Positions 36,643-55,530 of a DNA stretch of 64,000 bases are shown here, piece after piece (positions within the stretch are counted from its first letter, which is position 1; each line of letters opens with the position of its first letter). This DNA is from a virus (taxonomy: Duplodnaviria > Heunggongvirae > Uroviricota > Caudoviricetes). Made by a program: the position numbers and the translations under genes. The notes beneath the pieces are model-generated. The model worked only from the letters and a program-made list of their open reading frames with translations, made no database searches and was not told where the DNA came from. The DNA is taken from IMG/VR virus record IMGVR_UViG_3300032954_000003, positions 18,847 through 82,846 of that record. One strand, 5' to 3'.

Positions 36643-36947
36643 CTCTCATCCCGCATTTCGCTGCGCCCTTTGCCTTTAGTGCGAAGGGCGTAGTGAATGT
36701 TACCGAACAAGATAGTCAGCAGGAAATCTCAGACTGCATCTTCAATGTTGCTAGTTGCTTTGAAAACTTCCGCGAAGACTTGCCCGAATTTGGCATACCG
36801 GATCTAACATTCGAACAGATCCCACTGAATCTCGAAGCACTACAAGCGGCACTAAACCGCTGGGAACCGCGAGCGGAACTTACGCTTGAAGAAACAGAAG
36901 AACTTATGAATCCAGCAGCGCGTGCTGTATCGATCGAAGTGTTCTAG
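36639..36947 (+). CDS. baseplate wedge protein, GPW/gp25 family
   Basis: Segment FGIPDLTFEQIPLNLEALQAALNRWEPRAEL matches the GPW_gp25 signature (WEPR). Confidence 0.6.
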   Translation: MTLIPHFAAPFAFSAKGVVNVTEQDSQQEISDCIFNVASCFENFREDLPEFGIPDLTFEQIPLNLEALQAALNRWEPRAELTLEETEELMNPAARAVSIEVF

Positions 36948-38317
36948 AGAAGCTCTGCACGTTGGCGTATATCGAGTATGTGGTGCTGCCGTTCCAGCTT
37001 GCCGTCCTCAAAAAGCTTTAGCAGATAGTTGATGCCATCTGCTCCCTCCGCCAACGTTGCCAAAACACCCCTCCGGATAGTCAGCTTTAGCCGTCCGGCT
37101 TTGCTTGTCTTATCGGAACCTAGTGGTTCCTTATAGACAGGGTGCCACTCGCCTTCGCGCTTTTGTGCGCTGCACTTGAACGCAAACCTCTGGGTGTCGC
37201 GGTTGAGCTTTTGCAGTAGACCACCACCCATACCGAAAACCAAGTTCTCAGCAGCCCAACCAGCCTCTGCGGTAACGTCGAGGATCTGTTGGATATCGGC
37301 TGGTGTTAGACCATCGCCCCATAGGACGCGGACGTGGGGATCGAGTACGGTTCGCTTGCCGTTTGAGGTGCCACCAAACGCATCGCCTAGTGTCTGAAGA
37401 ATCCAGGTTACCAGCTCGCCTGGTGTTTTGTGTGCATCAGTGACTGAGTCAGGTCGTATAACAACAGGACCACCCTCGCGCTGCATGATCTCTTTCTTAC
37501 GCGCACAGATGTTGTATACGCAGTCATAGACGTTGTAGCTATCTACTACGATGGATAGCGGTCCTGAAGGGTACTGTTCGAGGATGTGACTAATCATGTC
37601 ATCCTCTCCCTCAGGGCCAAGCGCAGTCATTACTGAGTGCTCGGTCGCTGGTACGCTAGATCCAAGCTCTTCGTGGTAGCTGTCGCGCAACAGCTGGATA
37701 GCTGGCAACGTGTCTGTACCTAGGAAATTCACAAGGTGTGCCGCTCCACCTATAGCTGCTGCATCATGCGTTGTAGCGCCTCGATAGCCAAAGTCATGGA
37801 GCATAAAAGGCAAACCATTGAGCGAGCTTCCTGTATCCTCTAGTGCCTTTTTCAGCATTATCTTCACCTCTCGGCTAAGGGTTGCCACCGTGCATGGGTA
37901 CCACAAATGTGTTAGGTAGCTCTCGATGGCATTTGTTAGCCAGTAGCACTCGGGATCAGTGTTCTCGACCGTCATCAAGACATTGCCAGTCGGGATAGCC
38001 ATTCCCTCAGGGACAGCTCTTATGAGCAAAGGAAGTTTGCCATCATGCCAGTTGATGATGTGTTCCCACCCCTCAGTGTTAATCATGTCATCCGACCCGA
38101 AGTGCTTGCTTGCAAGCTGTTGCGCCTCTTGCAGGTGCTCGTCGGTTACTACCTCACCCGTGAGACCGCGTAGCAGGTGCTGTAAGCCGAAGAAAACGGT
38201 GTAGGGGTACCTTGCCCCTACTCGACTCTCGAAGTAGCTGTAAACGTGTTCAGTGCCCTCTGGATATTGTTTCCAGTGCGTGAGCTTGTATGAATCGGTT
38301 GCAAGTATGAGGTTCAT
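36944..38317 (-). CDS. nadV: nicotinamide phosphoribosyltransferase (NadV/NAMPT)
   Basis: Hallmark N-terminus MNLILATDSYKLTHWKQYP; 457 aa. Confidence 0.8.
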   Translation of the reverse strand: MNLILATDSYKLTHWKQYPEGTEHVYSYFESRVGARYPYTVFFGLQHLLRGLTGEVVTDEHLQEAQQLASKHFGSDDMINTEGWEHIINWHDGKLPLLIRAVPEGMAIPTGNVLMTVENTDPECYWLTNAIESYLTHLWYPCTVATLSREVKIMLKKALEDTGSSLNGLPFMLHDFGYRGATTHDAAAIGGAAHLVNFLGTDTLPAIQLLRDSYHEELGSSVPATEHSVMTALGPEGEDDMISHILEQYPSGPLSIVVDSYNVYDCVYNICARKKEIMQREGGPVVIRPDSVTDAHKTPGELVTWILQTLGDAFGGTSNGKRTVLDPHVRVLWGDGLTPADIQQILDVTAEAGWAAENLVFGMGGGLLQKLNRDTQRFAFKCSAQKREGEWHPVYKEPLGSDKTSKAGRLKLTIRRGVLATLAEGADGINYLLKLFEDGKLERQHHILDIRQRAELL

Positions 38318-39282
38318 CTCTTTACCTTTCGTATCTCTAAACCGCTGGTGTCGAGTTCAAGTTCTTCCACAACATGTAGTAATGCTCTGGACAATAGAGG
38401 TCGATGGTTTGGCATGACCTTGAGTTCAAGGTCTATGTCCAGTATGGATTCGTCTCCACGCCAGATATCGAACCAACCTACTTCCTCAATGTCGTCGTCT
38501 GGCCGAGGTGTACCGCTTTGGTGCTTAGCAGCGAACAGTAAAGTCTTGACCTTGTCTTGCTCGTTGCGATAGCGCCAGTCATCAACTTTGAAGGAACCGA
38601 GATACATTGGGTCCGTGATTTCTATGTGTGTCTCCTCATGCACCTCGCGCCGAGCATCCTGCTCAAATGTCTCTGAGGATGGATCAGCGAACCCACCGAT
38701 CAAGCGCCATAGCTTCTCGTCTGCCTTACGGCACAGAAGAATACGCTCGTAATCCTCACTGAAAACAGCTATATCTACTGTTGTAAACGAGGTAGGAAAG
38801 CGACTCTGCGAAGCCCACACAACACCAGCGCGCCAATCTGGCGAGTTCTTAGTTCGCCGGCGTCCCACCTCCTTTCGAAGCTGGCTGCCAGATACTCGGA
38901 TATAGTGCTCAGGCTCAAGTACCTCAGTAGGGTATGCCCCTCTGTAATGCTCTATGAATGAGTCCCGACCACCATATAGGATTGGACTCTGGGCAGGCGT
39001 GGTAACCTTGGCTATCTCAGCATCGAGCTTACGGCTCCAAAGCTGATCGTTGTTGACGTCCTGTATATAGAGAACATTGAGGTCTGGATAGGCAGCTAAA
39101 AGCATCTGCTTTCGCGCTTCAAAATCCAGCGGATTCTCAGCTGTTACTGGCAAAGGTGACAACCCAAGAAAGACAATCACCTTGTGGTGTTTGGCACAGA
39201 CGCTCTCAATCAAATGTCTGTGCATCCCATGCAAGTCGTGGACTTGAAAACGTCCCACGATGACGCCTACGTCGTGTTCCAT
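38314..39282 (-). CDS. nadM: bifunctional NMN adenylyltransferase / Nudix hydrolase (NadM-Nudix)
   Basis: Cytidylyltransferase motif GRFQVHDLHGMH (HxGH). C-terminal Nudix box GGFADPSSETFEQDARREVHEETHIEI. Confidence 0.75.
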   Translation of the reverse strand: MEHDVGVIVGRFQVHDLHGMHRHLIESVCAKHHKVIVFLGLSPLPVTAENPLDFEARKQMLLAAYPDLNVLYIQDVNNDQLWSRKLDAEIAKVTTPAQSPILYGGRDSFIEHYRGAYPTEVLEPEHYIRVSGSQLRKEVGRRRTKNSPDWRAGVVWASQSRFPTSFTTVDIAVFSEDYERILLCRKADEKLWRLIGGFADPSSETFEQDARREVHEETHIEITDPMYLGSFKVDDWRYRNEQDKVKTLLFAAKHQSGTPRPDDDIEEVGWFDIWRGDESILDIDLELKVMPNHRPLLSRALLHVVEELELDTSGLEIRKVKR

Positions 39283-40197: not shown

Positions 40198-40324
40198 TTT
40201 TGTTCTAATTTTTGGTCGGTTCACCGCGCCGACGCTTCAGGATAGCGCCTAGCAGTGATTCCGAATGATCCCATTTACCAAACAGATACTTCCAAATCAT
40301 TGACCACTCCTTTGTAGTGTCTAG

Positions 40325-40396
40325 AACGGGTGGCGAGGATCGAACTCGCTCTTAGAGCTTGGAAAGCTCTCGTGCTGCCAAGTACACCTCACCCGC
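40325..40396 (-). tRNA. tRNA-Gly (anticodon TCC), atypical A8 and G1.U72
   Basis: Cloverleaf with anticodon loop TTTCCAA and T-loop TTCGATC. Position 8 is A and 1-72 is a G.U pair. Confidence 0.5.
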
Positions 40397-40538
40397 GAAG
40401 AAATTGCCGTCGCCTAGAGCTGCCGCTTCAGCTCTAATTGACGGACTTGCCCTATTGGTTTATAGAAGGGCTATACATGCCTATTTCGGCCTCACGCGAG
40501 CGGTGCGGCATATTAGCTGTAGCTGCTTTTCGCGTTAG

Positions 40539-40628
40539 CGGAAAGCGGAGGAGTCGAACCCCTGCCTCGTCTTAGGAGACAACTGGTTTTCAAGACCAGC
40601 GCCGAGACCGACCTCGGCCGCACTTTCC
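40539..40628 (-). tRNA. tRNA-Ser (anticodon TGA), type II
   Basis: Anticodon stem-loop CTGGT-CTTGAAA-ACCAG, long variable arm GTCTCCTAAGAC, discriminator G; 90 nt. Confidence 0.65.
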
Positions 40629-40843: not shown

Positions 40844-41140
40844 ATAAGCGTTGCCTACACGACAAGCCTCTCAGGTACATCCGGTTTGCTTGTCCCGTTT
40901 TGTCCTTCAGGAACTAACCCATCCGTAAGCGCCTATCTGTACTTAGCGCAACCTCGGCAACGCAATAACGACTATAGCGTATCTAGCCGGCTCGTGCAAG
41001 CAGCGTGGATGCTGACAACTTAGTAGCTGGTGCTTCTTTGGACTTAGACATAGACATCAACGATACAGTAGACCGTCCTTCTTGGGGTGGACTGAATTCA
41101 GCAAAGTCATAAGCAAGCTCGGGCTTTGCTAAGTCCTTGC

Positions 41141-41353
41141 CTAGAAAGGGCGCACCACAACCTGGCAGCGGTCTAGCTTTGCTTGATCGGCAACAATCTC
41201 GTCCGGAATCGCACGAGCTGCGATCATTTGCGCCTTACCCTCATCGCGTGCCAAGATGCGTGTTACATCGACGACAAGCTTGGCCTCTTCAGTGACTTCA
41301 CCATCCTTGTCTGTTTTCTCGTCAAGAATAACGGCGTACTCGAAAATCTCCAT
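41141..41353 (-). CDS. hypothetical small acidic protein (70 aa)
   Basis: GAAAGGAAC RBS precedes the ATG. Confidence 0.5.
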   Translation of the reverse strand: MEIFEYAVILDEKTDKDGEVTEEAKLVVDVTRILARDEGKAQMIAARAIPDEIVADQAKLDRCQVVVRPF

Positions 41354-41574
41354 CGTGTTCCTTTCTTGCAGACAAATCCCCTAGCCCGCCCTCACGGCTC
41401 TCTATTGAAGTGATGCTGGTAATAACGATTCACCGTTACGATGCTCAATTGAGCTGTACACCTGCCGTACGATGAGGTGTTTCAACAGGTTTCTAGGTGT
41501 CGTAGATTGGGCCGACCAAGGCCAAGGAAAAGGTGCATCCGTCCTTCGCTAGATAACCGCTACCGACTGTCTGC

Positions 41575-42033
41575 TTAGATTAGGTCTGTAGCCCAGTTGA
41601 CTACCTGGATTTCATTGTCCAACTTCCGCAACTTTGCAGAAGTCTTATCAGCTTTTTCATGCAGTGCCTTTACATCCACATGCCGTGTGAGCTTTAGCTC
41701 AGACCGCATATAGCGGAAAGCACTAGTGTCACCTTGAGCAGCATCAGCCGCTTGCTTATAGGTGGCGATCAAGCCAGCCAAACGGTCACGTTCGGCGAGC
41801 GCATCTGTGAGTGTCCCCTTCTTGAACTTCGTAGAAGCGTTTGTATGGTTGATACGACCGATTAGGACCGCTAGGGCCTCATGAACCGTCTCTGCTTCTG
41901 AGATGAGCGTAGACGCGTTCTCAGGAGGTGTTGTATCCTCTTGTGCCGCTGCACTCATACTGATGCGGCTACGTAGTTCGCTAATGCGCTTTTGTAAGCG
42001 TGCGCGCTCTGAAAGCGCCTCTCCTAGTTTCAT
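41575..42033 (-). CDS. hypothetical helical protein
   Basis: The ATG (MKLGEALSERARLQKRISELRS) has an AAGGTGAG RBS; the track start at 42102 is an extension. Confidence 0.5.
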   Translation of the reverse strand: MKLGEALSERARLQKRISELRSRISMSAAAQEDTTPPENASTLISEAETVHEALAVLIGRINHTNASTKFKKGTLTDALAERDRLAGLIATYKQAADAAQGDTSAFRYMRSELKLTRHVDVKALHEKADKTSAKLRKLDNEIQVVNWATDLI

Positions 42034-42063
42034 TCTCTCACCTTGGTTTACTTGGTTACCGGA

Positions 42064-42135
42064 TTGCCGACCGAGGATTCGAACCTCAACCTCAGGGGCC
42101 AAAACCCTGCGTCACTGCCTTTAGACTAGTCGGCA
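42064..42135 (-). tRNA. tRNA-Gln (anticodon TTG)
   Basis: U1-A72 acceptor TGCCGAC pairs with GTCGGCA, anticodon loop TTTTGGC. Confidence 0.6.
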
Positions 42136-42208
42136 CTGGCGACCGAGGGCTCGAACCTCGAATACTGCGTCCAGAGCGCAGCGTCTTTCCTATTTAGACT
42201 AGTCGCCA
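42136..42208 (-). tRNA. tRNA-Gln (anticodon CTG)
   Basis: U1-A72 acceptor TGGCGAC pairs with GTCGCCA, anticodon loop CTCTGGA, discriminator G. Confidence 0.65.
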
Positions 42209-42282
42209 TACCCGCCGAGGGATTCGAACCCCCACTTTCCTGTTCTTGAAACAGTTGCCTCTACCGATTGGGCTACACGGGC
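42209..42282 (-). tRNA. atypical type-I tRNA with anticodon CAA (Leu UUG codon) but short variable arm; isotype undetermined
   Basis: 74 nt: GCCCGTG-TA-GCCC...AGGC-A-ACTGT-TTCAAGA-ACAGG-AAAGT-GGGGG-TTCGAAT-CCCTC-GGCGGGT-A. A73, G37, 5-nt variable loop. Confidence 0.5.
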
Positions 42283-42289
42283 TTGTACA

Positions 42290-42364
42290 TACCGCTGGTA
42301 GGATTCGAACCTACACTGACCGGAGCTTAAATCCGGTGCCTCTGCCAGGTTGGGCTACAGCGGC
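42290..42364 (-). tRNA. atypical type-I tRNA with anticodon TAA (Leu UUA codon) but short variable arm; isotype undetermined
   Basis: 75 nt: GCCGCTG-TA-GCCC...AGGC-A-CCGGA-TTTAAGC-TCCGG-TCAGT-GTAGG-TTCGAAT-CCTAC-CAGCGGT-A. Its 5' end overlaps the stop of CDS 42355..43041. Confidence 0.5.
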
Positions 42365-43041
42365 TCAATTACTACTGGTGGGTTGATGGGTCTGTAAATC
42401 GCATCCATGTGCGCAACATTATAGATGTTAGTCTCTCGTCCTTCGTACCTCAGTGTATATTGACCGTATCCCTCGTGAATATGACCACAGACAACGGTAC
42501 GTACACGTTGGGTTGCAACATTCTCTCGAAGCTCCTTTGAGCCACAATACTCGTAGCCTGTAATTCGATTGCCTACTAGATCTCCTCTGCCAGCTAATGG
42601 GCCGTGCGACAGTAGGATGTCTGTGTTCCGTGGGATGTTAGCGAAAGCTAGTCTAGCCTCGTCACCTTCCTTCTGAAACGCCCACCCAGGCAAATTAGGT
42701 GTCCAAGGTGTTCCATAGATGGTGAGGCCGTCTACCTCAGTGCCTGAATCCTCAAGGTAAGTTAGCTTTGGGATCTCCTCGACAGCTGCTTTACCTTCTT
42801 CGGTCTCAAGCCAGAAGTCATGGTTCCCAGCAACGAGGATCACACGCTCTGTAGGTAATGCGGCAATCCACTCAGCAAACGTTTCCTTCGCCCACTGCGT
42901 TTGGTCTGCCGGATGATGGCTACCATTGACTGGTGGTAAGTCTCCACCGATAAGAAGCAAGTCACAAGGCTCAATCTCAGGTAGCGCACCATGGAGATCG
43001 GATGTAGCAATGATGTGCATTACTCTCTTGGCTTCCACCAA
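42355..43041 (-). CDS. calcineurin-like metallophosphoesterase
   Basis: Motifs DLHG, GGDL, AGNHD and GHIHE. The start is either 43041 or the ATG at 43018 (MHII...). Confidence 0.65.
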   Translation of the reverse strand: MVEAKRVMHIIATSDLHGALPEIEPCDLLLIGGDLPPVNGSHHPADQTQWAKETFAEWIAALPTERVILVAGNHDFWLETEEGKAAVEEIPKLTYLEDSGTEVDGLTIYGTPWTPNLPGWAFQKEGDEARLAFANIPRNTDILLSHGPLAGRGDLVGNRITGYEYCGSKELRENVATQRVRTVVCGHIHEGYGQYTLRYEGRETNIYNVAHMDAIYRPINPPVVIEPL

Positions 43042-43235
43042 TCGGAAAACTCTGAGGAGCTGAGTCGATGCATTGCATGAGACGTCACAAACCCCTGCAA
43101 TACATGGACCGCTTGAGTTAGCTCACTACGATTGTACTGTAGTGGTCCGCGCTCGTCCATCTCAATGATTGCTTTAGCAGCATCCTCAATGGCTAGCATT
43201 GCGCGCAACTCATTCTCGTCAAGGATACTTTTCAT
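43020..43235 (-). CDS. hypothetical small protein (71 aa)
   Basis: ORF overlapping the start of the phosphoesterase gene; no clear RBS. Confidence 0.35.
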   Translation of the reverse strand: MKSILDENELRAMLAIEDAAKAIIEMDERGPLQYNRSELTQAVHVLQGFVTSHAMHRLSSSEFSDWWKPRE

Positions 43236-43369
43236 GCTGGTCTGTTGTGGAAGGTTTCTGGATCAGGGTCGAAGCCTAGGCATGGGCACTCGGTTTCGTT
43301 CTCGTCATCCAGCACATCGATGCAAGGTCCTGGCATTACACCGCCACCCTGTGTGGAGTAGTGCATCAT
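43236..43369 (-). CDS. hypothetical small Cys-containing peptide (44 aa)
   Basis: Its stop TGA overlaps the ATG of 43020..43235 (ATGA coupling). Confidence 0.25.
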
Positions 43370-43417
43370 GACCACACTTACAGGTGCTATAGATTGTGGC
43401 TTCTAACTTGTTCATAG

Positions 43418-43504
43418 TACCGCCCGAGGGACTCGAACCCTCAATGCCTATCACGGCAAACTGGTTCCTAAGACCAGCGTGTTTACCAATTTCACCAGAG
43501 CGGC
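43418..43504 (-). tRNA. tRNA-Leu (anticodon TAG), canonical type II
   Basis: 87 nt. Anticodon stem-loop CTGGT-CTTAGGA-ACCAG, long variable arm TGCC-GTGATA-GGCA, A73. Confidence 0.65.
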
Positions 43505-43524
43505 CTGTGTCTAGCTGGCTAGAA

Positions 43525-43605
43525 GTGCCGAGGGAGGAATCGAACCTACCTTGTCGGAGACCACCGGGTTACAGCCGGCTACCTGGCCATCAGGCGTCCT
43601 CGGCA
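43525..43605 (-). tRNA. tRNA-Tyr (anticodon GTA), type II
   Basis: 81 nt. U1-A72 acceptor, anticodon loop CTGTAAC at canonical positions 32-38, variable arm GTC-TCC-GAC. Confidence 0.55.
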
Positions 43606-43610
43606 TTGAG

Positions 43611-43684
43611 CGGGTGGGCCGAGAATCGAACTCGGGATTACTGGTTTTGGAGACCAGTCGCGGACACCAACGCCGCACTCACCC
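43611..43684 (-). tRNA. tRNA-Trp (anticodon CCA)
   Basis: Anticodon stem-loop CTGGT-CTCCAAA-ACCAG, T-arm CCGAG-TTCGATT-CTCGG. One A.C mismatch in the acceptor. Confidence 0.5.
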
Positions 43685-43726
43685 CTAAGAGTAAGTGTTG
43701 GAGTCGCTGGTATCGCCATCGGAAAG

Positions 43727-43798
43727 TCCGGGTGGATGGAATCGAACCATCTCTGCCTGCTCCCAAAGCAGGTGTGCGAGCCACTACACCACACCCAG
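43727..43798 (-). tRNA. tRNA-Pro (anticodon TGG)
   Basis: C1-G72 and A73 (Pro-like). Anticodon loop TTTGGGA, T-arm GATGG-TTCGATT-CCATC. Confidence 0.65.
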
Positions 43799-44116
43799 TG
43801 GATGTGGGTCGCGGTCGATCTGGGTTTCGGTTCGTGTCCATTGCAGTAATTGTAGCAAACGCGCCGTGGGGTCATACCGACCGGCCACAGCCCACAGCCT
43901 TACCGTCGAGTCGGCGTTTGCACGCGAGGGCCCAACTTGTTGCGCCCGGTGTCTTGCCAGTGACACGACCTCTCTACCCCGCAGGGAACTGAGCGCTCTC
44001 AACACCCAAAGTGCGGATGACACAATGGGTAGAACATCTGAGCTACGGGCGCAAAGCGCACTATAGCGCATCGGCGCAACGGTGGCAAATAACGCGGTTT
44101 TGCAGGGAGATTACTT

Positions 44117-45583
44117 ATGGCTGAATTCATAAACGTAAACGTCGAAACTGAACCGATCCAGCTTGCCGATAATGCGCTAGATAGGTTGGCGGAAGAACTC
44201 GAAGCCAAGGGAATCATTGGATGGGAACCTAATGAAGCCAACCTAGAAGTCATCCTCATCAATATCTTGGCGATGATGGCTAATAACGCTGCGCTAGTCG
44301 CAGCAGTTGTACCAGAAGCTGTCTTCCGCCAATATGGCACTCAGCTTTTCAAACTCCTGTTCAACGAAGGTGCCTACGCCAGCGCTAGCACCAAATGGAA
44401 ACTCCTAGAAGAAGGCGGCAAATACCCAGCACGGGAAATTGAAGCTGGGTTAACTATCGAAGGCTCAGGCAAGGCGTTCTATGTAGAAAAAGCGGTTGAA
44501 GTCAAAGAAGGTGAACATGAAGCGACGGTACAGGTCATCGCTGCCGAACGCGGTGAAGAATATAACGGCATCACAGGAGTGCTATCGCCTGTAAACAACA
44601 TCAACTTCGTATCGGAAATCACGATTACCGCCGAAACAACAGGCGGCGCAGATCAGGAAAACGATACCGAATACATGAAACGTCTAGCTACACAGCTAGA
44701 ACTACAAGCACCACGTCCCATTACAGCAGCCAATTTTGCAACGTTTGCTTTGGATGCTCCTAGCACTGTGCTACCTACTGGTGTTGTTATCGGTAGAGCG
44801 ACAGCGATAGACGGCTATAACCCAGAAGTCCATACCTTCGAAGCCAAAGTAGTCAGCACTGAAACGACAATGGCTGAAGTGACTAGCTTTACCGGCATCA
44901 CCGCTGAAGCAAGCTCGCCGCAGAAACACCCTGGCACGCGTCTCAAAGGTCCTGGTATCGCTGAAGGTACAACCGTGGTCTCAGTCAACGAAGGTGCCAA
45001 AACCTTGGTGATGAGTAAAGCGGCGATCTCAAGTCCTGGGAAAAAAGAAAAATACGAAGCGATCGGCTCCTACGAAAACCAGCGTACTGTAACCGTATTC
45101 GTGACAACTAGACAAGGTAAAGAAGTGTCTAAAGCTGGCCGTGAAGCGGTACAGAAATATCTTGAATCGTATCGTGAGATCAACTTCAAAGTCTTCGTTG
45201 AACCACCCAACTACAACGAAGTGCGCGTGACTGCCGTTGTACATGTTCTCTCAGGGTTCAATGAAGCGACCACTCTGTCTAACGTCAAAACTGCCATCGA
45301 AAATCTCCTCTCGCCTGAAACATGGGGTAACCCGACCAACCGCAATGAAGATGAAAGTTCGGGGTGGATCAACGCCACTGAAGGCTTCAACGTTGTGCGT
45401 TACAACCAGATCATTGGAGCGATCGAGGCGGTACAGGGAGTTGCCTACGTGCTAGCAGGCAGCTCTGGACTTGCTATAGGACTGGAAGAAGCACCTGGCA
45501 GTAAAACGGCCGATCTAACGCTGTTTGGACCAGCGCCACTGCCGGAAACCAAACCAAGCAATATCAAAGTAACAGCGGGCTAA
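44117..45583 (+). CDS. baseplate J-like protein
   Basis: 488 aa. Position and composition fit P2 gpJ / T4 gp6-like proteins. Downstream of the W/gp25 gene after the insertion. Confidence 0.55.
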   Translation: MAEFINVNVETEPIQLADNALDRLAEELEAKGIIGWEPNEANLEVILINILAMMANNAALVAAVVPEAVFRQYGTQLFKLLFNEGAYASASTKWKLLEEGGKYPAREIEAGLTIEGSGKAFYVEKAVEVKEGEHEATVQVIAAERGEEYNGITGVLSPVNNINFVSEITITAETTGGADQENDTEYMKRLATQLELQAPRPITAANFATFALDAPSTVLPTGVVIGRATAIDGYNPEVHTFEAKVVSTETTMAEVTSFTGITAEASSPQKHPGTRLKGPGIAEGTTVVSVNEGAKTLVMSKAAISSPGKKEKYEAIGSYENQRTVTVFVTTRQGKEVSKAGREAVQKYLESYREINFKVFVEPPNYNEVRVTAVVHVLSGFNEATTLSNVKTAIENLLSPETWGNPTNRNEDESSGWINATEGFNVVRYNQIIGAIEAVQGVAYVLAGSSGLAIGLEEAPGSKTADLTLFGPAPLPETKPSNIKVTAG

Positions 45584-47957: not shown

Positions 47958-48273
47958 GTGTGCCCAAAGGGTGACCTAAGGGGTTACGGCTATATGGAAT
48001 GCTTGAACGGCTTAGAATCGCCAAGCCGCATACGCAAGGCTACATACAAGGAACGTCACAGCAAACGCTACAAAGCTGCCGGTTATGACCCATGCCGTTA
48101 CACTAGCTACAGCAATGAAATAACGGACAGGACGCGTTCTAGCAGCTACACGACGTTTTGCGTTTCGCCGCGCCCACCGATACTCCTTGCGTGTTGCGTA
48201 ATTCTCTCGGTTTAGTTGAGTGCTCATGCAACGTAGGATAGCAGTGGACCGACGCTAGTGCAAACGCCGCTGG

Positions 48274-48789
48274 TCACTCATCAGTCTCTCCGTGGTCTCT
48301 GGGGGTGTGGGCTGCTGAGAGCCAGTTCTCGAACGCTGGTCGTAGCTCGGCGGGTAGCTCGCTCTCGCGGCCCTCGTATGGCCATTCGCCGTTGTAGCCC
48401 TCACCGCTGTGCGCGAAGCCAGCCACGTAGGCCGCCAGCAGCTCCTCATCTGTCGGCTCACCGGACCGGACGGGCTCGGCCAACTTGTCGAAGGCGTCGG
48501 CTATGGCCGCCTCGAACCGATAGGTGCTGCTGATTGGGCCCCAGCCTGTCAGCTCCGCAATGAGCTCGTCGTGCGTGTGCATCCGGTCCCAGAACCAGCA
48601 CATCCGGGCGTGTGGCGTGCCAGCACCGATCGGGCCGGTCTCCTCGTGGTCTGTGACACCAGGGATACCGCCCTCCACATCGCCGGGCCAATAGGTCGGG
48701 CTGCCCCGGACGGGCTCGTAGGAGCAGGTCCTCTCGTCGCTGGTGTGGACCTTTACGTGAGAGCCGCAGGTGGGGCAGGTGTCAGCCAT
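48274..48789 (-). CDS. hypothetical protein with N-terminal Zn-ribbon (GC-rich island)
   Basis: GGAGGAG RBS precedes the ATG (MADTCPTCGSH...). About 68% GC. Start overlaps the upstream stop. Confidence 0.55.
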   Translation of the reverse strand: MADTCPTCGSHVKVHTSDERTCSYEPVRGSPTYWPGDVEGGIPGVTDHEETGPIGAGTPHARMCWFWDRMHTHDELIAELTGWGPISSTYRFEAAIADAFDKLAEPVRSGEPTDEELLAAYVAGFAHSGEGYNGEWPYEGRESELPAELRPAFENWLSAAHTPRDHGETDE

Positions 48790-49288
48790 TCGACTCCTCC
48801 GAGGTAGGGGTGGTTGGGTTCTGGGCTGCGAGTGCTGCGCGGGCCACGGTTCCGGCGGGGGAATTGGCACAGTCCTCGTTGGTAGCGATGAACCCCAGGG
48901 CCGCTTTGTAGCGCCCTCCGACCAGCGACTCGCGGTCCCGCTGTTCCCGATAACTCTGCTCGCGTGCAAGTGCCCCGTCCCGCTCCTCCCTCAGAGCCCT
49001 TGCGTCCTCTTCTGCCGCCTCTGCTCGCCGGTTTTTCTTTTCCGCCAGCTCGCGCAACGACTCCCGCGCTCGGCGGTGCATGGCGATCTCCTCTTCTGCA
49101 TGGGAAAGGGCGGACTCGGCTTGCTCGGCTCCGACTTCCTCGATGTAGTCGCAGGCATCGACCCATCCGGCGTTGTAGGCCACGCGCTCAATGACGCTCT
49201 GAGGGTGATGGCGCTCGCAGTGCTCCTGCATAGCGCTCGGATGGCGAGTCTCAGCCACGGGGTCTCCTGGGGATGGATGGTCAGGCAT
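48782..49288 (-). CDS. hypothetical coiled-coil protein (GC-rich island)
   Basis: GGGAG RBS plus ATG (MPDHPSPGD...); coupled to its neighbours. Confidence 0.5.
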   Translation of the reverse strand: MPDHPSPGDPVAETRHPSAMQEHCERHHPQSVIERVAYNAGWVDACDYIEEVGAEQAESALSHAEEEIAMHRRARESLRELAEKKNRRAEAAEEDARALREERDGALAREQSYREQRDRESLVGGRYKAALGFIATNEDCANSPAGTVARAALAAQNPTTPTSEESNG

Positions 49289-49604
49289 CGACCGGCTCCC
49301 GTGCGATTGAATCCCAGAAGCGCTTGGAGCCATCTACCTTGCACTCAAGGCCGCAGATCGTGCATTTGCCGTGGTAGTTCCACTCGACCTTGCCGCCCTC
49401 GGTCCACCACTCGTAATCCTCGCGGAAGGTCCGGTACTTGTTGTCTTCGGCGTCCGGGAGGTCCGGCAAGTCGGCGCGGCGCTGCTCAAACTCCTCGACG
49501 GGGATCTGGCCGTAAAGCGCGTCAACTTCGCGCTTTGCCTCTTCGGCGGTTTCCTTGGCCTGCTGCAAGCATCGCGGGCAGGCTGCCCAGTTATCGGCAC
49601 TCAT
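49281..49604 (-). CDS. hypothetical Zn-ribbon protein (GC-rich island)
   Basis: GAGAGGAGCGAG RBS. CPRC...CTICGLEC motifs. Confidence 0.55.
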   Translation of the reverse strand: MSADNWAACPRCLQQAKETAEEAKREVDALYGQIPVEEFEQRRADLPDLPDAEDNKYRTFREDYEWWTEGGKVEWNYHGKCTICGLECKVDGSKRFWDSIAREPVDA

Positions 49605-50117
49605 GGCCGCTCGCTCCTCTCACTAGATGGTGTGGTCCTGCCTGCTAGCAGCGCGTTCGTTTCGTCGATGATTTCCTGCGCCTCGTCGGACTCGGGCGGC
49701 GTTGTCGTGGCTTCCCAGAATCGTCGCGTTCGGGCCAGCACCCGCAGCGCCTCCTCCTTCTGGCGCTTCTCCTCGGTGTAGGCGGACTCGACCCGGGTCG
49801 GGAAGATGGCCAAGTCGATGTACTGGACACCCGCAGTTGCCCAGACGCCATGCAGCACCCAGGATTCGCGCCCGTGTGGTCCGAGCTTGGGCTTGTCGCT
49901 CCCTTCCGGTCCCTCGGCGACGAACCCCTCTCGGAGCAGTGCGTCGATGAGGGCTTGCGTCCCGCGTGCGGGCTCAGTCCAGGGCACGGCCACAATGTCG
50001 AAGTCCCGCGCCTCGCTGCCGTGTCGAGCGATGGCGTAGCCCGTCAGGTATCCGGCGTGACGCACACGCTCAATGATTCGGTCCAGTGCGGCCTCCCGTG
50101 GCTCAGTGTGATTGCTC
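49601..50117 (-). CDS. minimal nucleotidyltransferase (Pol-beta superfamily, MNT-like) candidate
   Basis: HGSEARDFDIVAV fits the hG[GS]...D.D NTase motif. AAGG RBS plus the ATG MSNHTEP. Confidence 0.45.
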
Positions 50118-50459
50118 ATCCGAACGCTGCCTTGATCGCCAGGCATCGGGGGCCTCCCGCTGACGCTTGGCTGCCTCGTACTCGGGGCTGCCCTCGGGTG
50201 GCCACGGGCCGGGCGAGAAGTCTTCCCAGCGAGTCACGATGCGCCGCTGATTGGCCGGTCCGGGATAGGTGCGCTCCTCCACCGTCGCCCCGCACGCCTC
50301 TAAGAAGGCGTGAATGGCGGCTTCGGCCTCCTCAACATCTTCGGCATCCTCAAGCGGCGAGCGGCCGTAGCACTCCTCGTAGCTCATGGCACAGCGGCCA
50401 CCGTCGTCCCACTTGTACTGCGGTTCGCGGTCGTACGTGGCGCGGATGTGTGCCTCCAC
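50103..50459 (-). CDS. hypothetical acidic protein (GC-rich island)
   Basis: ORF overlaps the start of the NTase gene; the start codon (GTG at 50459 or an internal ATG) is uncertain. Confidence 0.4.
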   Translation of the reverse strand: MEAHIRATYDREPQYKWDDGGRCAMSYEECYGRSPLEDAEDVEEAEAAIHAFLEACGATVEERTYPGPANQRRIVTRWEDFSPGPWPPEGSPEYEAAKRQREAPDAWRSRQRSDEQSH

Positions 50460-50498
50460 AGCCTCAGGGTGGCAACCTCAGATCAGGGGTGGGCTCAG

Positions 50499-50831
50499 TC
50501 ATCGCGTACCTCGGGTGTTCAGCTCACTATTTCTCGCAGCTACAGCTACACGAGCATCCGCCATAGCTTGATGGAACTTCGATTCCCATTCTGGGTCGTC
50601 GTCCGGTATGCGCGCACGTATGCTTGTTGCTAATACAACATCACGACCTCGTATTCCTACGTATGACATCTTTTCTAACACTTCGGTGACGTTGTTTTTA
50701 GAGCGATGGTCTGCAAACCAGCGAGCTTTACGATAAAGGTGCTGATCGTGACGTATTAGCCAACGGCGTCTGTAGTAAAACGCAATCGCTACGAGAACCA
50801 CAAGGAACAGAAGCACACCGAGGTCTGGCAT
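50499..50831 (-). CDS. small membrane protein (N-terminal TM helix)
   Basis: N-terminus LGVLLFLVVLVAIAFYY. Immediately follows the lipoprotein gene on the same strand. Confidence 0.5.
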   Translation of the reverse strand: MPDLGVLLFLVVLVAIAFYYRRRWLIRHDQHLYRKARWFADHRSKNNVTEVLEKMSYVGIRGRDVVLATSIRARIPDDDPEWESKFHQAMADARVAVAARNSELNTRGTR

Positions 50832-51791
50832 TTAGTGGGTCACCGCAAATCCTGCGCCTGGCGCAAAGGTTGTAACGTTTGGCGGAATTGCCTTTAGCTC
50901 ATCGATTTGAGCGCATGCAGGGCAGTGTTCGTAACCATGTTGACGTTCCTCATTTGCTTGTGCTTCCAGCTTGGCTTGTGCAACCTTGGCTCGTGCTGAA
51001 CCAACGGCTGCGAACTGCGCTTGTGCCTTATCGATTTCATTCTGGATAGCTTCTGGCAGTGTTACGTGTTCAAGCAGGAAGCTAATGTTCGAGAAGTAGT
51101 CATTACCGAGCGCCGATGCAATGTCGGTCTTGAGGTTAGCGTTGACTGCTTCTTGAACCTTTTGCAAGTTACCGTTGTTTTGTCCACCGCTGGACACGCT
51201 TGAACTGTTGTGGATTAGCGCACAAGATGACACAAGCTGTGGACACGTAACCGTACCGATGCTGCGTCGCAGATCATTGTTGATGATCGGTCGCACAACT
51301 TGGCTTAGCAGCGCACGCCAACCTTCTTCGCCTTCATAGGGCTTTAGCGCTTCGGCACCTTCATTGCTGGATTGAAATGTACGGATACCAAAGCGACTAT
51401 CGAAATCCTTGAGCAGTCTTACACCTGTTACTGAGCAGTTGAATGCCGTCGTGAAGTAGAAGGTACCTTCAAGTCCAACGCGAACACCATCTTGCGTTGG
51501 CACCTCAACGACATCTGCCCCCTTGCGGTCACCTTGACCAGATTCCGATGTAATGGTGTAGTTACGCTGTACGCTGTCCGCTGGGTACCAGTGGACTTCC
51601 GAGCCAAAACCTGGCCATGACCAGCCGGTCCCAGGACAAATAACCTTACTGATCCCATGACCATTGAACCACGTCCATGGTGCAATAAAGGAATGGCCTG
51701 TCCGTACTACTCCAATCTGCCCAGCACCCGGTGTAGCACCGCACGCTGCTAGCGCCAATCCAAGTGCTGCAACAGCGAAAAGTCGCTTCAA
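50832..51791 (-). CDS. SPFH/band-7-like lipoprotein
   Basis: Lipoprotein signal MKRLFAVAALGLALAACGA (lipobox LAAC). Central and C-terminal regions with Ala/Gln-rich coiled coil resemble an SPFH domain. Confidence 0.5.
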   Translation of the reverse strand: MKRLFAVAALGLALAACGATPGAGQIGVVRTGHSFIAPWTWFNGHGISKVICPGTGWSWPGFGSEVHWYPADSVQRNYTITSESGQGDRKGADVVEVPTQDGVRVGLEGTFYFTTAFNCSVTGVRLLKDFDSRFGIRTFQSSNEGAEALKPYEGEEGWRALLSQVVRPIINNDLRRSIGTVTCPQLVSSCALIHNSSSVSSGGQNNGNLQKVQEAVNANLKTDIASALGNDYFSNISFLLEHVTLPEAIQNEIDKAQAQFAAVGSARAKVAQAKLEAQANEERQHGYEHCPACAQIDELKAIPPNVTTFAPGAGFAVTH

Positions 51792-52201
51792 GTGATGCCT
51801 CCTGTTACATTGATGTCCACTGATCTGATGTCCTCATCGTTGATGAGATATGAACGAACCACCGGCTTTTGCCATGGTCCAACGCCAACTATCAGCCACT
51901 CAACATCTGGCCAGTTCTCCGCAAACTGGACGTCAACCATTGAAGGAAACGCAGGGATACAAATGTGCGAGTGATAGATGGCACCAAGCTTGAAACCTTG
52001 AGACTCGAACTCTGTGATCTGCTCGATAAGTTCGAGCGGATCAATAATGAACTCGACCTCCGGTTTGTCTGAGATGTTGATAGAGCGATGCATGCTTGTC
52101 GCTTCGTTATCCTTGGTGGCAATAAGTCCACAACACTCAAACGGCGCATCCTCCCACGCATGGGTGAGGATGTCGGCTAGGATGTTGGCGTTGATGTCCA
52201 T
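51788..52201 (-). CDS. JAB/MPN (JAMM) metallopeptidase
   Basis: JAMM motif elements PFECCG...YHSHICIPAFPSMVD (E ... HxH ... S..D). Confidence 0.65.
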   Translation of the reverse strand: MDINANILADILTHAWEDAPFECCGLIATKDNEATSMHRSINISDKPEVEFIIDPLELIEQITEFESQGFKLGAIYHSHICIPAFPSMVDVQFAENWPDVEWLIVGVGPWQKPVVRSYLINDEDIRSVDINVTGGIT

Positions 52202-52626
52202 TAGGGTCGGTATCGTTCAATTGCCTCTTGGACACGCTTTGCAACGTCTGTGACACCTGCTAGTGCGATAGCACTGATGGTGTCTGCAAGGCTTGGCGTC
52301 CCGTCTTGTGGATTCTCGTCCTGTAGCCGCTGTTCTAGTGCCTCTACATCCTGCTCTGTTTCGATCGGCCCTAGCTCACGAAGCTGCTGCGTCACGGCTG
52401 AGACCAACCTAGTGACTTCTTGTGCCGCTGGGTTATCAAGGTTCTCGTAGAACGGCAGTGTTACAACAGCAGCACGAGTTGAATTAGGGTACATCTTTTC
52501 GGCAAGTTCTCGGATGTTTTGCATATCGGTAGCGCTTGGTGGCGTGTCTAGCCGGATTTCAACCTGCGCTGCTCTGTCAGTTGCACTCGGTCCGCCAGCG
52601 CGAGCTATTACTAAATGTCTGTGCAT
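52201..52626 (-). CDS. hypothetical protein (141 aa)
   Basis: Its stop overlaps the ATG of the JAB gene (ATGA). Confidence 0.45.
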   Translation of the reverse strand: MHRHLVIARAGGPSATDRAAQVEIRLDTPPSATDMQNIRELAEKMYPNSTRAAVVTLPFYENLDNPAAQEVTRLVSAVTQQLRELGPIETEQDVEALEQRLQDENPQDGTPSLADTISAIALAGVTDVAKRVQEAIERYRP

Positions 52627-52675
52627 GGTGTCCTTTGGAAGGTGGGGACGCCGATTGACGTCCCCACAGTTTGAT

Positions 52676-54277
52676 CTATTCCAGCGGCTTTGCCGACAAA
52701 GGCGTTACCACTACTGTTGTCGAGTTACCTTCGCCACTCAGCAACATTGTGAACACTTCCCCGAGCAATCCTCCAAGTCCTAGCAAGCCGCTGTGGCAAG
52801 AGAACTTACCGATAGCGGATGTGCCATTGAGATGGACTTCGCTTTCGAGACTTGTAAGAGATTGATGTCCAGTGAGATAAAGCTTTGCCTTGCTTTCGCA
52901 GCTCGTGGGGATCTTCAGGCCGAGCATCGACAGGTACTCAATGCCGATTTGCTCGGTGCCGGTGGTGCGGAGCTTTGCTTCGGTGGCGCTTTCCCATTCG
53001 GTGTTTCCGGTGATGGCGCCGCCGATGTTTAGGCCGAGGCTTGCGACGGTGAGACCCTCCCATTCGAGTGGGGCTCTGAAAGTTCCCGTGCTGAATGAGG
53101 TGTTCAGATTCCCGTACAGTGCTGACAGACCCGACGCTTCCCCCACTGGGAAATTGAACGACTGACCCAACTTCTTGTCCTTCAGGCTGCTGCCCGCTAG
53201 AGACCACTTCGTTAGATGTAAGACTTTTGGGGCCGGTGCGCCGCCTCCGCCGACGTAGTTGTCGAGGAGGCCCTGGCCGATGACGGTGACGGGTTCTGGG
53301 AGGTCCTTGACTTCGTAGGGAGCGCAGCAGGGTTCATAGCCGCCTTCGCTCACGCCGATGCCGAGCATCCCGCGCAGGTTGCCGTCCCAGGTGTAGGCCT
53401 TGCTGTTCTGGAGTGCGATGAAGCTCTCTGTGCCGGAGGCGGCCTGCACGGCTCCCGTGATCGGTGCGGCGTGCATCTTGCCGTTGGGTTCGAGCATGTA
53501 GAGCGAGCCGTTTTCCGTCTGGGCGAGGCCGTCTGTCCACCCAGGCCAGAGGTTGACGACGCCGTTGGCGCGTTCGGTGAGTGCGTCCTCCGAGCATCCC
53601 ATCACCTTGCCCTTGGCGGTGAGGACGTACACGTCCTCCAGGGCGGGCTCGACCTGCTTCGCTTCGCTGACGCCTTCCATGACCACGGGGGAGTCGCCCC
53701 CGCCGCGTGAGGCGAGGCAGAACTGGTCGTATGTGTTCGTGCCCCAGTTGACGACCTGGCCGCCCGAGGTGACCGCGGCGGCCGATGCGGGGCCGGCGCC
53801 GATCGAGGTGGCGACCAGTCCGGGCACGACTTCCGGTAGATGGTGCGTGTCGAACTGCGGCTCATAGAGCGTGCCGTTGATCGTGGCGCCCCAGGTGACC
53901 ACGCTGCCGTTGGAGAGCAGCGCCATCGCGAAGTGCTCACCGGCCGCGATGTTGACGACGTGTTCGAGCGGCAATGCGACCGGGGTGTCCGAGCTTGCCG
54001 GTGAGGCGACGCCGAGCTGGTCGTATTCGTTCGAGCCACAGGTGTAGACCTTGCCTTCGCTGCCGAGGAAGACGACGAACTGTTCGCCGCCGGCTATCGC
54101 CGTTGGCTTGATCGACGACGCCGCGGCTGGGATGCTGCTGTACGCCTGTTCTGCGAACGGGATGCCGTCGCAGAGTGCTCCGTCTTCGTTGCCTCCGATG
54201 GAGCCGAGACCCGCCATTGCCGAGGGCGCTAAGACGAGCGCTGCCAGCGTGGCGACGAGGATTGACCCGAGTTTCAT
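52676..54277 (-). CDS. secreted RCC1-repeat beta-propeller protein (GC-rich, host-like)
   Basis: Signal peptide MKLGSILVATLAALVLAPSAMA. Repeats YTCGSNEYDQLG and WGTNTYDQ. About 68% GC. Confidence 0.6.
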   Translation of the reverse strand: MKLGSILVATLAALVLAPSAMAGLGSIGGNEDGALCDGIPFAEQAYSSIPAAASSIKPTAIAGGEQFVVFLGSEGKVYTCGSNEYDQLGVASPASSDTPVALPLEHVVNIAAGEHFAMALLSNGSVVTWGATINGTLYEPQFDTHHLPEVVPGLVATSIGAGPASAAAVTSGGQVVNWGTNTYDQFCLASRGGGDSPVVMEGVSEAKQVEPALEDVYVLTAKGKVMGCSEDALTERANGVVNLWPGWTDGLAQTENGSLYMLEPNGKMHAAPITGAVQAASGTESFIALQNSKAYTWDGNLRGMLGIGVSEGGYEPCCAPYEVKDLPEPVTVIGQGLLDNYVGGGGAPAPKVLHLTKWSLAGSSLKDKKLGQSFNFPVGEASGLSALYGNLNTSFSTGTFRAPLEWEGLTVASLGLNIGGAITGNTEWESATEAKLRTTGTEQIGIEYLSMLGLKIPTSCESKAKLYLTGHQSLTSLESEVHLNGTSAIGKFSCHSGLLGLGGLLGEVFTMLLSGEGNSTTVVVTPLSAKPLE

Positions 54278-54540
54278 TGCGGTTCACCTTCCCTTGTTCC
54301 GGTTTCTTTTGCCTCCCGTATTTCCTCGTGGCTAGCGCCTTTCTCAACTGCTAGATCAACGAGACGGTCACGCTCATTATATGTACGTACCATCTCTGTA
54401 ACTGCACGTACACAGCACGCTTCCGCTGAAACAAGCGCCGACAGCGCTTGCCGCTTAGCTTCCTCACTGTCCCTCTTTACAGAGGAGACAATGGCACTTG
54501 TTACTGGCTGAGCGGCCTTTTGGACTTGATCGTCGTCCAT
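54274..54540 (-). CDS. hypothetical protein (88 aa)
   Basis: Overlaps the start of the RCC1 gene; part of the same minus-strand operon. Confidence 0.4.
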   Translation of the reverse strand: MDDDQVQKAAQPVTSAIVSSVKRDSEEAKRQALSALVSAEACCVRAVTEMVRTYNERDRLVDLAVEKGASHEEIREAKETGTREGEPQ

Positions 54541-55118
54541 TATTCAGACCGTTTATACATGTTAGCCATTTCGAACCACCGACGCTCTAGCTCTGGATTC
54601 TCAAGCCAAAGCTTCTGACTTAGCGCATTATCAGCCGTTGGACACTCAGTGTTGATATGGCAACAGTACCAAGCGCCTACTTCTATGAAGGGTCTTTCTT
54701 CATAGCCGTGACGCCCTAAGCCAGGAATTGGCTCCTCGTAAGCAAGGAGCTTGACGTTGCCTATATGGTCACATGTATCCACTCGATATTGCCGTTTGTC
54801 GTCTGCCGAACTGACAATGAAGTATCCATTAGCATCGAGTTCTCGACGTTGATCCTCGCTCAAATAGCGCCGGAGGAGATCCATGGCACGTCTATCCGCA
54901 ACCCTTTGGCGAAGATGATACGCTCGGGTCATGTTATCGTTTATCAGCCGCCACCGTTGCCGTGACCAGAGATCATTTCGATTACCAGTGTAACTCTCCT
55001 CCGTCAACTGCTGGGCACGGACCAGCTCAGGATCTACCCGCTCGGCTCGAACCCATGTAGTGGCTGTAGGCATGCATGGCACATACTCGCGCCATGCATG
55101 CCACTCGCCGGCTGGCAT
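54540..55118 (-). CDS. hypothetical protein (192 aa)
   Basis: Clean ORF, overlaps its neighbour by 1 nt. Confidence 0.45.
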   Translation of the reverse strand: MPAGEWHAWREYVPCMPTATTWVRAERVDPELVRAQQLTEESYTGNRNDLWSRQRWRLINDNMTRAYHLRQRVADRRAMDLLRRYLSEDQRRELDANGYFIVSSADDKRQYRVDTCDHIGNVKLLAYEEPIPGLGRHGYEERPFIEVGAWYCCHINTECPTADNALSQKLWLENPELERRWFEMANMYKRSE

Positions 55119-55121
55119 TGC

Positions 55122-55349
55122 TCAGCCGCCCGCCATTGCTGGGACGTACAGGATGGCTGCTGCCATCTTGTCGAACTCGTGCAGCTGGTCACCGCGCTTG
55201 CCATCCGGGTCCATCCGGAACGCGAGATACTTCTTGTTGTGGACCATATCGGCGAACTGGTGTTCTGCTGACTGGACCTCAACATCCACGTCGGGGTCCC
55301 ACTTTGTCTCAGTGTCGCCCCTACGGTTTAGAACGTGTGCTACGCCCAT
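55122..55349 (-). CDS. hypothetical small protein (75 aa), first gene of the long minus-strand operon
   Basis: Strong AAAGGAGAG RBS precedes the ATG. Divergent from the S12-like gene. Confidence 0.5.
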   Translation of the reverse strand: MGVAHVLNRRGDTETKWDPDVDVEVQSAEHQFADMVHNKKYLAFRMDPDGKRGDQLHEFDKMAAAILYVPAMAGG

Positions 55350-55475
55350 CTATTTCTCTCCTTTTGGCTTAGATAAACTGGTCGGCGCGGAACTACAAAG
55401 TCCTTCGGGGTGGACGGTCCCGCGCCGGTCGCTAACGATAGCGGGTAACCGTAGCTAATGCAAGTCCCGTTTTAG

Positions 55476-55513
55476 CCGCTATTTGCGCGACTGCTTGCCT
55501 AGCCGGCTAGAGA
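55476..55513 (+). promoter_or_regulatory. conserved TTGCGN - CTAGCCGGCTAGAGA element upstream of the S12-like gene (one of seven copies)
   Basis: Copies at 5071-5101, 11688-11721, 24245-24261, 29047-29082, 43510-43525, 55476-55513 and a variant at 60444-60458. 12-bp palindrome CTAGCYRGCTAG. Confidence 0.5.
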
Positions 55514-55530
55514 TTGCTACCCTTTACCGC

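Follow-up and report, generated by a model that had tools for sequence, protein, structure and literature searches.

Two adjacent tRNA genes of an uncultured phage of the class Caudoviricetes carry the leucine anticodons CAA and UAA but have the short variable loop of type I tRNAs. The locus raises the question of whether the two are tRNA-Leu of unusual shape, tRNAs charged with a different amino acid at UUA and UUG (UUR) codons, or decoys and pseudogenes, which are the three readings offered in a preliminary description of this DNA. Here we report an analysis of the pair within the window, by which we mean the whole stretch of 64,000 nucleotides that was analysed. The pair very probably represents functional type I tRNA-Leu genes that supply UUR decoding in a 52%-GC uncultured actinophage-like genome, and we infer that both are expressed and charged.

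Mycobacteria and other actinobacteria normally have the type I form for the tRNA-Leu that read UUA and UUG, and phages commonly carry it as well. Such tRNAs have already been described in actinobacteria and annotated in many phages; what is new is that these members come from an uncultured phage, and only the G37 aspect treated below carries some novelty. The pair signals neither a codon reassignment nor a new class of tRNA, and what had looked alarming about it has mostly been removed.

Gene calls and structure of the tRNA pair

ARAGORN called both genes, and the Rfam tRNA model (gathering score 29) matched them over their full length with the anticodon in the same register, at 46.0 bits for tRNA-Leu(CAA) and 57.4 bits for tRNA-Leu(UAA). 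A fold check of this kind had been proposed in the preliminary description; it returned no other register and placed both genes above the gathering score, and the two adjacent leucine tRNAs reported there were thus recovered, on the minus strand. Parsing by structural position gave the anticodon loops UUCAAGA (CAA) and UUUAAGC (UAA) and the 5-nt variable loops AAAGU and UCAGU, respectively, and it reproduced the A73, G37 and G1·U72 noted earlier in both tRNAs. Both also have U32. Neither has the long variable arm of a type II tRNA-Leu (at least 10 nt, forming a hairpin), and the CCA end is absent from the sequence of both genes.

Every stem of tRNA-Leu(UAA) is standard-paired, without a mismatch, and tRNA-Leu(CAA) has two non-standard pairs, G7·G66 and A27·G43, both at helix ends. 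The D stem consists of 3 bp plus C13·A22 in both tRNAs, with the D arms GCCC-AAUCGGUAGA-GGC and GCCC-AACCUGGCAGA-GGC. The nucleotides of the tertiary core are intact, namely U8, A14, A15-U48, G18G19, the T54-A58 loop UUCGAAU and G53-C61. For comparison, a leucine identity set was taken from PMC9976931 and PMC6614811, and all of its elements (A73, U8-A14, A15-U48, G18G19, a 3-bp D stem and unpaired 13-22) occur in both tRNAs. Leucine identity in E. coli is set by A73, A15-U48, G18G19 and A20a, and the long arm is not a determinant (PMC9976931). The gene structure of the pair is thereby established. Minimum free energy (MFE) folding, weakly informative alone, gave z-scores of -1.1 and -2.4, with the anticodon loop of tRNA-Leu(CAA) over-paired in the MFE structure.

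The two tRNAs are 73% identical and are each other's closest paralogue in the window, where no other tRNA exceeds 69% identity to them. Descent from tRNA-Phe by a change of the anticodon GAA to CAA and UAA and descent from the adjacent tRNA-Gln genes were both considered and rejected, as the body matches the leucine family, the closest paralogue of each is the other member of the pair and the remaining window tRNAs are less similar.

The pair lies head to tail with two tRNA-Gln genes in the order Leu(UAA), 7 nt, Leu(CAA), 0-1 nt, Gln(CUG), 0-1 nt, Gln(UUG), a tandem spacing that implies co-transcription and processing by RNase P and 3' enzymes. The window holds 21 tRNA genes called by ARAGORN, in three clusters and all on the minus strand (features are collected in Table 1). 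As the preliminary description had stated, a canonical long-arm tRNA-Leu(UAG) is present near the pair. It shares G1·U72 and A73 with the two type I tRNAs, its acceptor strand GCCGCUC equals the GCCGCUG of tRNA-Leu(UAA) at six of seven positions, and its D arm, GUGA-AAUUGGUAAA-CAC, resembles theirs. A15-U48 is common to all three leucine tRNAs of the window.

Table 1. Positions of the tRNA pair and of other features in the window
Feature	Positions	Strand	Remarks
Type I tRNA-Leu(CAA)	42209-42282	minus	74 nt; reads UUG; ARAGORN
Type I tRNA-Leu(UAA)	42290-42364	minus	75 nt; reads UUA, and UUG by wobble; ARAGORN
Type II tRNA-Leu(UAG)	43417-43504	minus	for CUN codons; 18-nt variable region; ARAGORN, Rfam tRNA model, parsing
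tRNA-Gln(UUG) and tRNA-Gln(CUG)	42064-42208	minus	directly abut Leu(CAA); tight tandem array
tRNA cluster	42064-43798	minus	Pro, Trp, Tyr, Leu-UAG, small ORFs, metallophosphoesterase, Leu-UAA, Leu-CAA, Gln, Gln
Calcineurin-like metallophosphoesterase gene	42355-43041	minus	inside the tRNA cluster
Promoter-like site	44088-44060	minus	upstream of the cluster; no better than chance
tRNA-Gly(UCC)	40324-40396	minus	G1·U72 also apparent
tRNA-Ser(UGA)	40538-40628	minus	46.5 bits on the Rfam tRNA-Sec model (gathering score 47)
Adjacent genes for nicotinamide phosphoribosyltransferase and a NUDIX-domain protein	36944-39282	minus	NAMPT_N and NAPRTase, E ~1e-36, for the phosphoribosyltransferase
SPFH/Band 7 protein gene	50832-51791	minus	within 48000-56000
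ORF with RCC1-repeat-like matches	52676-54277	minus	within 48000-56000

Type I tRNA-Leu genes in bacteria and phages

Relatives were sought with the D-arm motif TAGCCCAA-N2-5-GGNAGAGGC, in which the anticodon is left unspecified. Scans covered viral contigs (loci L001-L122) and one-genome-per-species bacterial contigs (loci L124-L243), and ARAGORN was used to call tRNAs at the matched loci. The motif was present at no fewer than 120 loci in the viral contigs and at no fewer than 120 in the bacterial genomes. Among the matches listed, 111 viral tRNAs carried the motif; 109 of these had a called three-base anticodon, in every case one for a leucine codon (UAA 42, UAG 32, CAA 27, CAG 4, AAG 2, GAG 2), and ARAGORN did not type the anticodon of the other two. 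The genomic matches listed gave 111 leucine anticodons in 111 motif-bearing tRNAs (UAA 70, CAA 18, UAG 10, CAG 9, GAG 4). Lengths among the matches listed were 74-79 nt for the 111 viral and 74-78 nt for the 111 genomic tRNAs. One conserved tRNA body thus occurs with anticodons that span both leucine codon boxes and, among the called anticodons of the matches listed, with none else, which is strong evidence for leucine identity.

In 91 of the 109 tRNA-containing genomic loci among the matches listed, only one tRNA gene was found within 8 kb. Such solitary loci yielded 84 unique type I Leu genes among the matches listed, and they look like ordinary chromosomal genes. Most of these solitary genes belong to Actinomycetota (Nocardia, Gordonia, Rhodococcus, Mycobacterium, Corynebacterium, Amycolatopsis, Pseudarthrobacter and others), and some to Planctomycetota, Myxococcus, Acidobacteriota and other MAGs. 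Their spread over these groups contradicts the review that gives tRNA-Leu a long arm everywhere but in animal mitochondria (PMC9976931) and fits poorly with the description of the Streptomyces coelicolor case as rare by Fan et al. (PMC6614811). With at least 120 loci per collection, the occurrence of type I tRNA-Leu in bacteria and phages goes far beyond what reviews describe.

Family counts were made on a motif-ascertained, non-independent sample, in which the search motif itself accounts for some of the invariance seen in the D arm. In this sample A73 was present in 266 and a 5-nt variable loop in 252 of the 268 unique family members among the matches listed. The stems have 88-100% standard pairs and three to six pair types at most positions, which amounts to covariation. 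Of the 268 relatives, 249 have the 3-bp D stem with C13·A22, a family norm that was, however, built into the search motif. At the two positions mismatched in tRNA-Leu(CAA), 95% and 92.5% of the family pairs are standard, and only 31-39 is lower (88%).

A covariance model (R1) was then made exclusively from chromosomal type I tRNA-Leu, 58 genes in all, comprising 55 solitary genomic genes together with M. tuberculosis H37Rv (Mtb) CAA, Mtb UAA and M. smegmatis mc2155 (Msm) CAA. It scored tRNA-Leu(UAA) of the window at 83.1 bits and tRNA-Leu(CAA) at 71.0 bits. The best score of any other window tRNA was 51.4 bits, for tRNA-Ala, and the type II tRNA-Leu(UAG) reached 41.2 bits. Membership of both tRNAs in the family is thereby established.

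Contrary to the preliminary description, the known bacterial tRNA-Leu do not all belong to type II, as published type I examples exist in Mtb, Msm and S. coelicolor. The tRNA-Leu(CAA) and tRNA-Leu(UAA) of Mtb and Msm are 74-nt type I tRNAs in the tRNAscan-SE tables of Xu et al. 2024 (supplement, PMC11541572), where Mtb tRNA-Leu(UAA) has the sequence GCCCCCATAGCCCAATTGGCAGAGGCAGCGGACTTAAAATCCGTCAAGTGTCGGTTCGAGTCCGACTGGGGGCA. The CAG, GAG and UAG genes of both species measure 86-89 nt in that supplement, and the main text assigns long loops to tRNA-Leu-2, -3 and -5 only (PMC11541572). Pairwise identity between the window pair and the Mtb and Msm type I tRNA-Leu is 69-79%; tRNA-Leu(CAA) is 72% identical to its counterparts in both species, and tRNA-Leu(UAA) is 75-79% identical to the type I tRNAs of the two. 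Shared features are the 5-nt variable loop ending in GU, A73, A15-U48 and the D arm GCCC-AAYYGGCAG-AGGC with C13·A22. As in Mtb and Msm, type I serves UUR and type II serves CUN codons, so that the window has the mycobacterial layout. In contrast, the mycobacterial genes have G1-C72, C32 and A37 with the loops CUCAAAA and CUUAAAA, whereas the window pair has G1·U72, U32, G37 and no encoded CCA.

Biochemical precedent comes from S. coelicolor, where a type I tRNA-Leu(CAA) is leucylated by the single LeuRS of the organism, with its leucine-specific domain required (Fan et al. 2019, NAR 47:6369, PMC6614811). Deletion of the gene was tried without success, the tRNA serves 6706 UUG codons that depend on it, and its 5-nt variable-loop length is important (PMC6614811). 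Like the window, S. coelicolor keeps a short-loop UUG reader beside type II isoacceptors. Unlike the window, only its CAA tRNA is type I, its tRNA-Leu(UAA), bldA, being type II (PMC6614811), and the gene is cellular, not of phage origin. Charging of a type I tRNA-Leu depends on the LeuRS, as that of E. coli did not charge the S. coelicolor tRNA (PMC6614811). A short-loop tRNA-Leu(UAG) has also been noted in tRNA clusters that Mycobacterium mucogenicum/phocaicum gained by horizontal transfer (Behra et al. 2019, PMC6582537). As in the window, this is a type I tRNA-Leu in a mobile array that differs from the long-arm isoacceptor (there chromosomal), but its anticodon is UAG and the cluster lies in a bacterial genome (PMC6582537). 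Animal mitochondrial tRNA-Leu(UUR) is likewise type I, with A73 and A14 as identity elements; unlike the window tRNAs it is organellar, has a relaxed structure and is served by a dedicated mitochondrial LeuRS. The S. coelicolor LeuRS does not charge it (PMC6614811).

Among isolated phages, blastn against 50,697 records found genes similar to the pair (75-83%) in 58 records, nearly all of them annotated as tRNA-Leu. The tRNA-Leu genes 144, 148 and 150 of Gordonia phage Sixama comprise a 76-nt tag, a 74-nt taa and a 75-nt caa gene, Streptomyces phage Wakanda has tRNA-Leu of 74 nt and 84 nt, with gene 130 as a type I example, and Pseudomonas phage ZC03 (ZC03_043) and Enterobacter phage vB_ExiM_F1M1E have one type I tRNA-Leu each. 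In these four phages the 74-77-nt tRNA-Leu lie in arrays and share the D-arm motif, as in the window. They differ in being of other lineages and hosts, and in Sixama all three leucine tRNAs, UAG included, are type I, unlike the type II UAG of the window. The occurrence of type I tRNA-Leu (UAA and UAG) in the Proteobacteria phages ZC03 (L248, 296-372) and vB_ExiM_F1M1E (L249, 295-372) contrasts with the failure of E. coli LeuRS on the S. coelicolor tRNA (PMC6614811).

Phage copies differ systematically from chromosomal ones in their frequency of G at position 37. Among the matches listed, G37 was found in 0 of 73 UUR readers from solitary chromosomal genes, in 3 of 9 from genomic tRNA arrays and in 18 of 89 from viral contigs, and G1·U72 in 11%, 32% and 39%, respectively, of all type I Leu genes. 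The difference in G37 between viral and genomic UUR readers gave a Fisher p=0.0008, on a motif-ascertained and non-independent sample of the matches listed. Each of the 73 solitary chromosomal UUR readers among the matches listed carries A37, chromosomal copies keep the A36A37A38 context, and both window tRNAs have G37 in place of A37. G37 is thus a subgroup trait of mobile copies and does not define the family, and with G37 and U32 the anticodon loops of the pair are not host-like (CUUAAAA/CUCAAAA). The modification i6A37 needs A36A37A38, and the usual context of m1G37 is G36G37. G37 after A36 is an unusual context for both, so the phage tRNAs may escape dependence on hypermodification.

Decoding of UUR codons and competing explanations

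The meaning of UUR codons was examined by aligning 15 predicted window proteins by tblastn and tallying the residue opposite each window codon. Mycobacterium phage Redno2 and the viral contigs L244-L246 served as relatives; as L245 and L246 nearly duplicate each other, there is some redundancy in the counts. Leucine stood in the homologue at 50% of 68 aligned positions for TTA, 43% of 136 for TTG and 53% of 932 for CTN, and at 12% of 564 for Phe codons. For UUR combined the value was 45% against 53% for CUN, with V, I and M as runners-up. As leucine is about as frequent opposite UUR as opposite CUN, UUR means leucine in the window genome.

In the 80 predicted window genes (18,396 codons, GC3 51%), usage per 1000 codons is 6.6 for TTA, 11.2 for TTG and 17.0 for CTA. 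TTA occurs in 55 of the 80 genes, with 11 codons each in terminase and portal. UUA and CUA are very rare in high-GC actinobacteria. S. coelicolor has 145 UUA codons (PMC6614811). The comparison of phage and host usage that the preliminary description had proposed sets counts for the phage beside the general codon preference of high-GC actinobacteria and this S. coelicolor count. The three window Leu tRNAs, UAA, CAA and UAG, match the highly used codons UUA, UUG and CUA. For these leucine codons a high-GC host would be the least well equipped. Codon supply is accordingly the most economical function, and it is the likely benefit of the pair to the phage.

Under this explanation, the minus-strand array would be transcribed, host enzymes would process the transcript and add CCA, and the LeuRS of a presumed actinobacterial host would leucylate both tRNAs. 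Bacterial LeuRS ignores the anticodon and uses A73, U8-A14, A15-U48 and the G18G19 elbow, all of which the pair has, and one actinobacterial LeuRS, that of S. coelicolor, accepts a type I tRNA-Leu. Once charged, the tRNAs would decode UUG and UUA as leucine, and the phage would gain a supply for UUA, UUG and CUA, codons that it appears to use far more than a high-GC host would.

Of the readings first offered, that of short-loop leucine tRNAs has stood, as a form normal for the lineage. It is extremely improbable that some amino acid besides leucine is attached to the pair and that UUA and UUG are thereby reassigned or ambiguous during infection. Such recoding could be suspected from the short loop, unusual by an E. 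coli-centred expectation, and from G37 and G1·U72, but the codon alignment speaks against it. Family anticodons cover exactly the six leucine codons (among the matches listed), and the pair is 69-79% identical to the sole UUR decoders of Mtb and Msm. It also has A73 and C3-G70 (no G3·U70) and lacks the U35 or C35 that other synthetases read. A stop-reading anticodon is absent from the pair, as CAA and UAA read the sense codons UUG and UUA. Nor do the two genes appear to be decaying pseudogenes or non-translational tRNA-like decoys, for instance leftovers of tRNA-array turnover, which we consider very unlikely. The two mismatches and modest general score (46 bits) of tRNA-Leu(CAA) could point that way, as could a promoter search that returned nothing convincingly above chance. 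Against decay, all tertiary nucleotides are intact, the family-specific scores are 71-83 bits, both mismatches lie at helix ends and among the least strictly paired positions of the family, tRNA-Leu(UAA) is free of mismatches, and the pair stands in a tight co-oriented array with intact tRNAs.

Two further explanations accept the tRNAs as leucine tRNAs and differ on their purpose. One is that tRNA-Leu(UAA) is carried to escape a developmentally limited decoding of UUA, as in Streptomyces. The rarity of UUA in high-GC actinobacteria and the short tRNA-Leu genes of Streptomyces phages agree with this, but both UUR readers are type I, which fits Mycobacterium-like hosts and not S. coelicolor with its type II bldA, and the presence of TTA in most predicted genes indicates general supply. 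A regulatory switch, in which UUA is rare and confined to a few regulatory genes, is not the pattern within this phage, and the bldA-type parallel drawn in the preliminary description is accordingly weak. Such a bypass is unlikely, and it is a special case of codon supply without a distinct mechanism. The other is that the leucine tRNAs serve mainly in counter-defence, or independently of host i6A37, so that translation continues when the host tRNA-Leu is attacked. The G37/U32 type I tRNA-Leu(UAA/CAA) might then form a mobile sub-lineage that either does not depend on host modification of A37 or evades a toxin or nuclease recognising CUUAAAA/CUCAAAA. We regard both this role and this sub-lineage as doubtful, if less so than the bypass. 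In their favour, G37 in UUR readers is confined to mobile contexts (among the matches listed) and present in both window tRNAs, phage tRNAs with anticodon-loop changes have been proposed to evade anticodon nucleases (PMC10264068), tRNA-Tyr variable loops offer a further precedent (PMC13096335, PMC11555353), and candidate counter-defence genes, NAMPT and NUDIX, lie nearby. On the other side, this analysis identified no nuclease against actinobacterial tRNA-Leu(UAA/CAA), G37 is found in a minority even of viral copies (20% among the matches listed), and the high usage of UUA, UUG and CUA already accounts for the tRNA set. The short arm is host-like in actinobacteria and so offers no phage-specific evasion trait; evasion of variable-arm nucleases by a phage-specific short arm was rejected, as host chromosomal UUR tRNAs share it. 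A counter-defence role is compatible with codon supply and does not exclude it. The difference between phage and chromosome at position 37 is a lead, open to test at little cost, on whether such tRNAs do without modification or evade toxins.

Surroundings of the array

Predicted ORFs trace the window to a single metagenome contig of 108,815 bp (ENA ERZ27256576, k141_4285166). Predicted proteins of the window include terminase, portal, protease, capsid, tape-measure and baseplate-like proteins. The nearest isolates are Mycobacterium phages of the Omega/cluster-J type, with identities of only 40% for terminase and 30% for capsid. The host may plausibly be an actinobacterium. No match was obtained against isolated phages by megablast of 41000-45000, nor by tblastn of the baseplate-like protein, and no relatives of the metallophosphoesterase were found in the viral contigs. 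Capsid relatives at 52-53% identity (L244-L246) had no tRNAs in the stretches examined. Promoter and terminator scans gave no signal above shuffled expectation.

The TAG stop codon of the metallophosphoesterase gene is formed by U8-A9-G10 of tRNA-Leu(UAA), which gives the coding sequence a 10-nt overlap with the tRNA. A part of this putative enzyme in RNA-end healing is conceivable. The tRNA-Ser(UGA) gene was considered as a selenocysteine tRNA and rejected, as its anticodon is UGA and not UCA and the tRNA-Sec score reflects a cross-match of class II tRNAs. The nicotinamide phosphoribosyltransferase and NUDIX genes adjoin the tRNA cluster at 39.7-40.8 kb and look like an NAD+ salvage module of the kind that phages use against NAD-depleting defences. 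G+C content is 57-59% at 48000-56000, the region that includes the SPFH/Band 7 and RCC1-repeat-like genes, against about 52% elsewhere and in the window as a whole.
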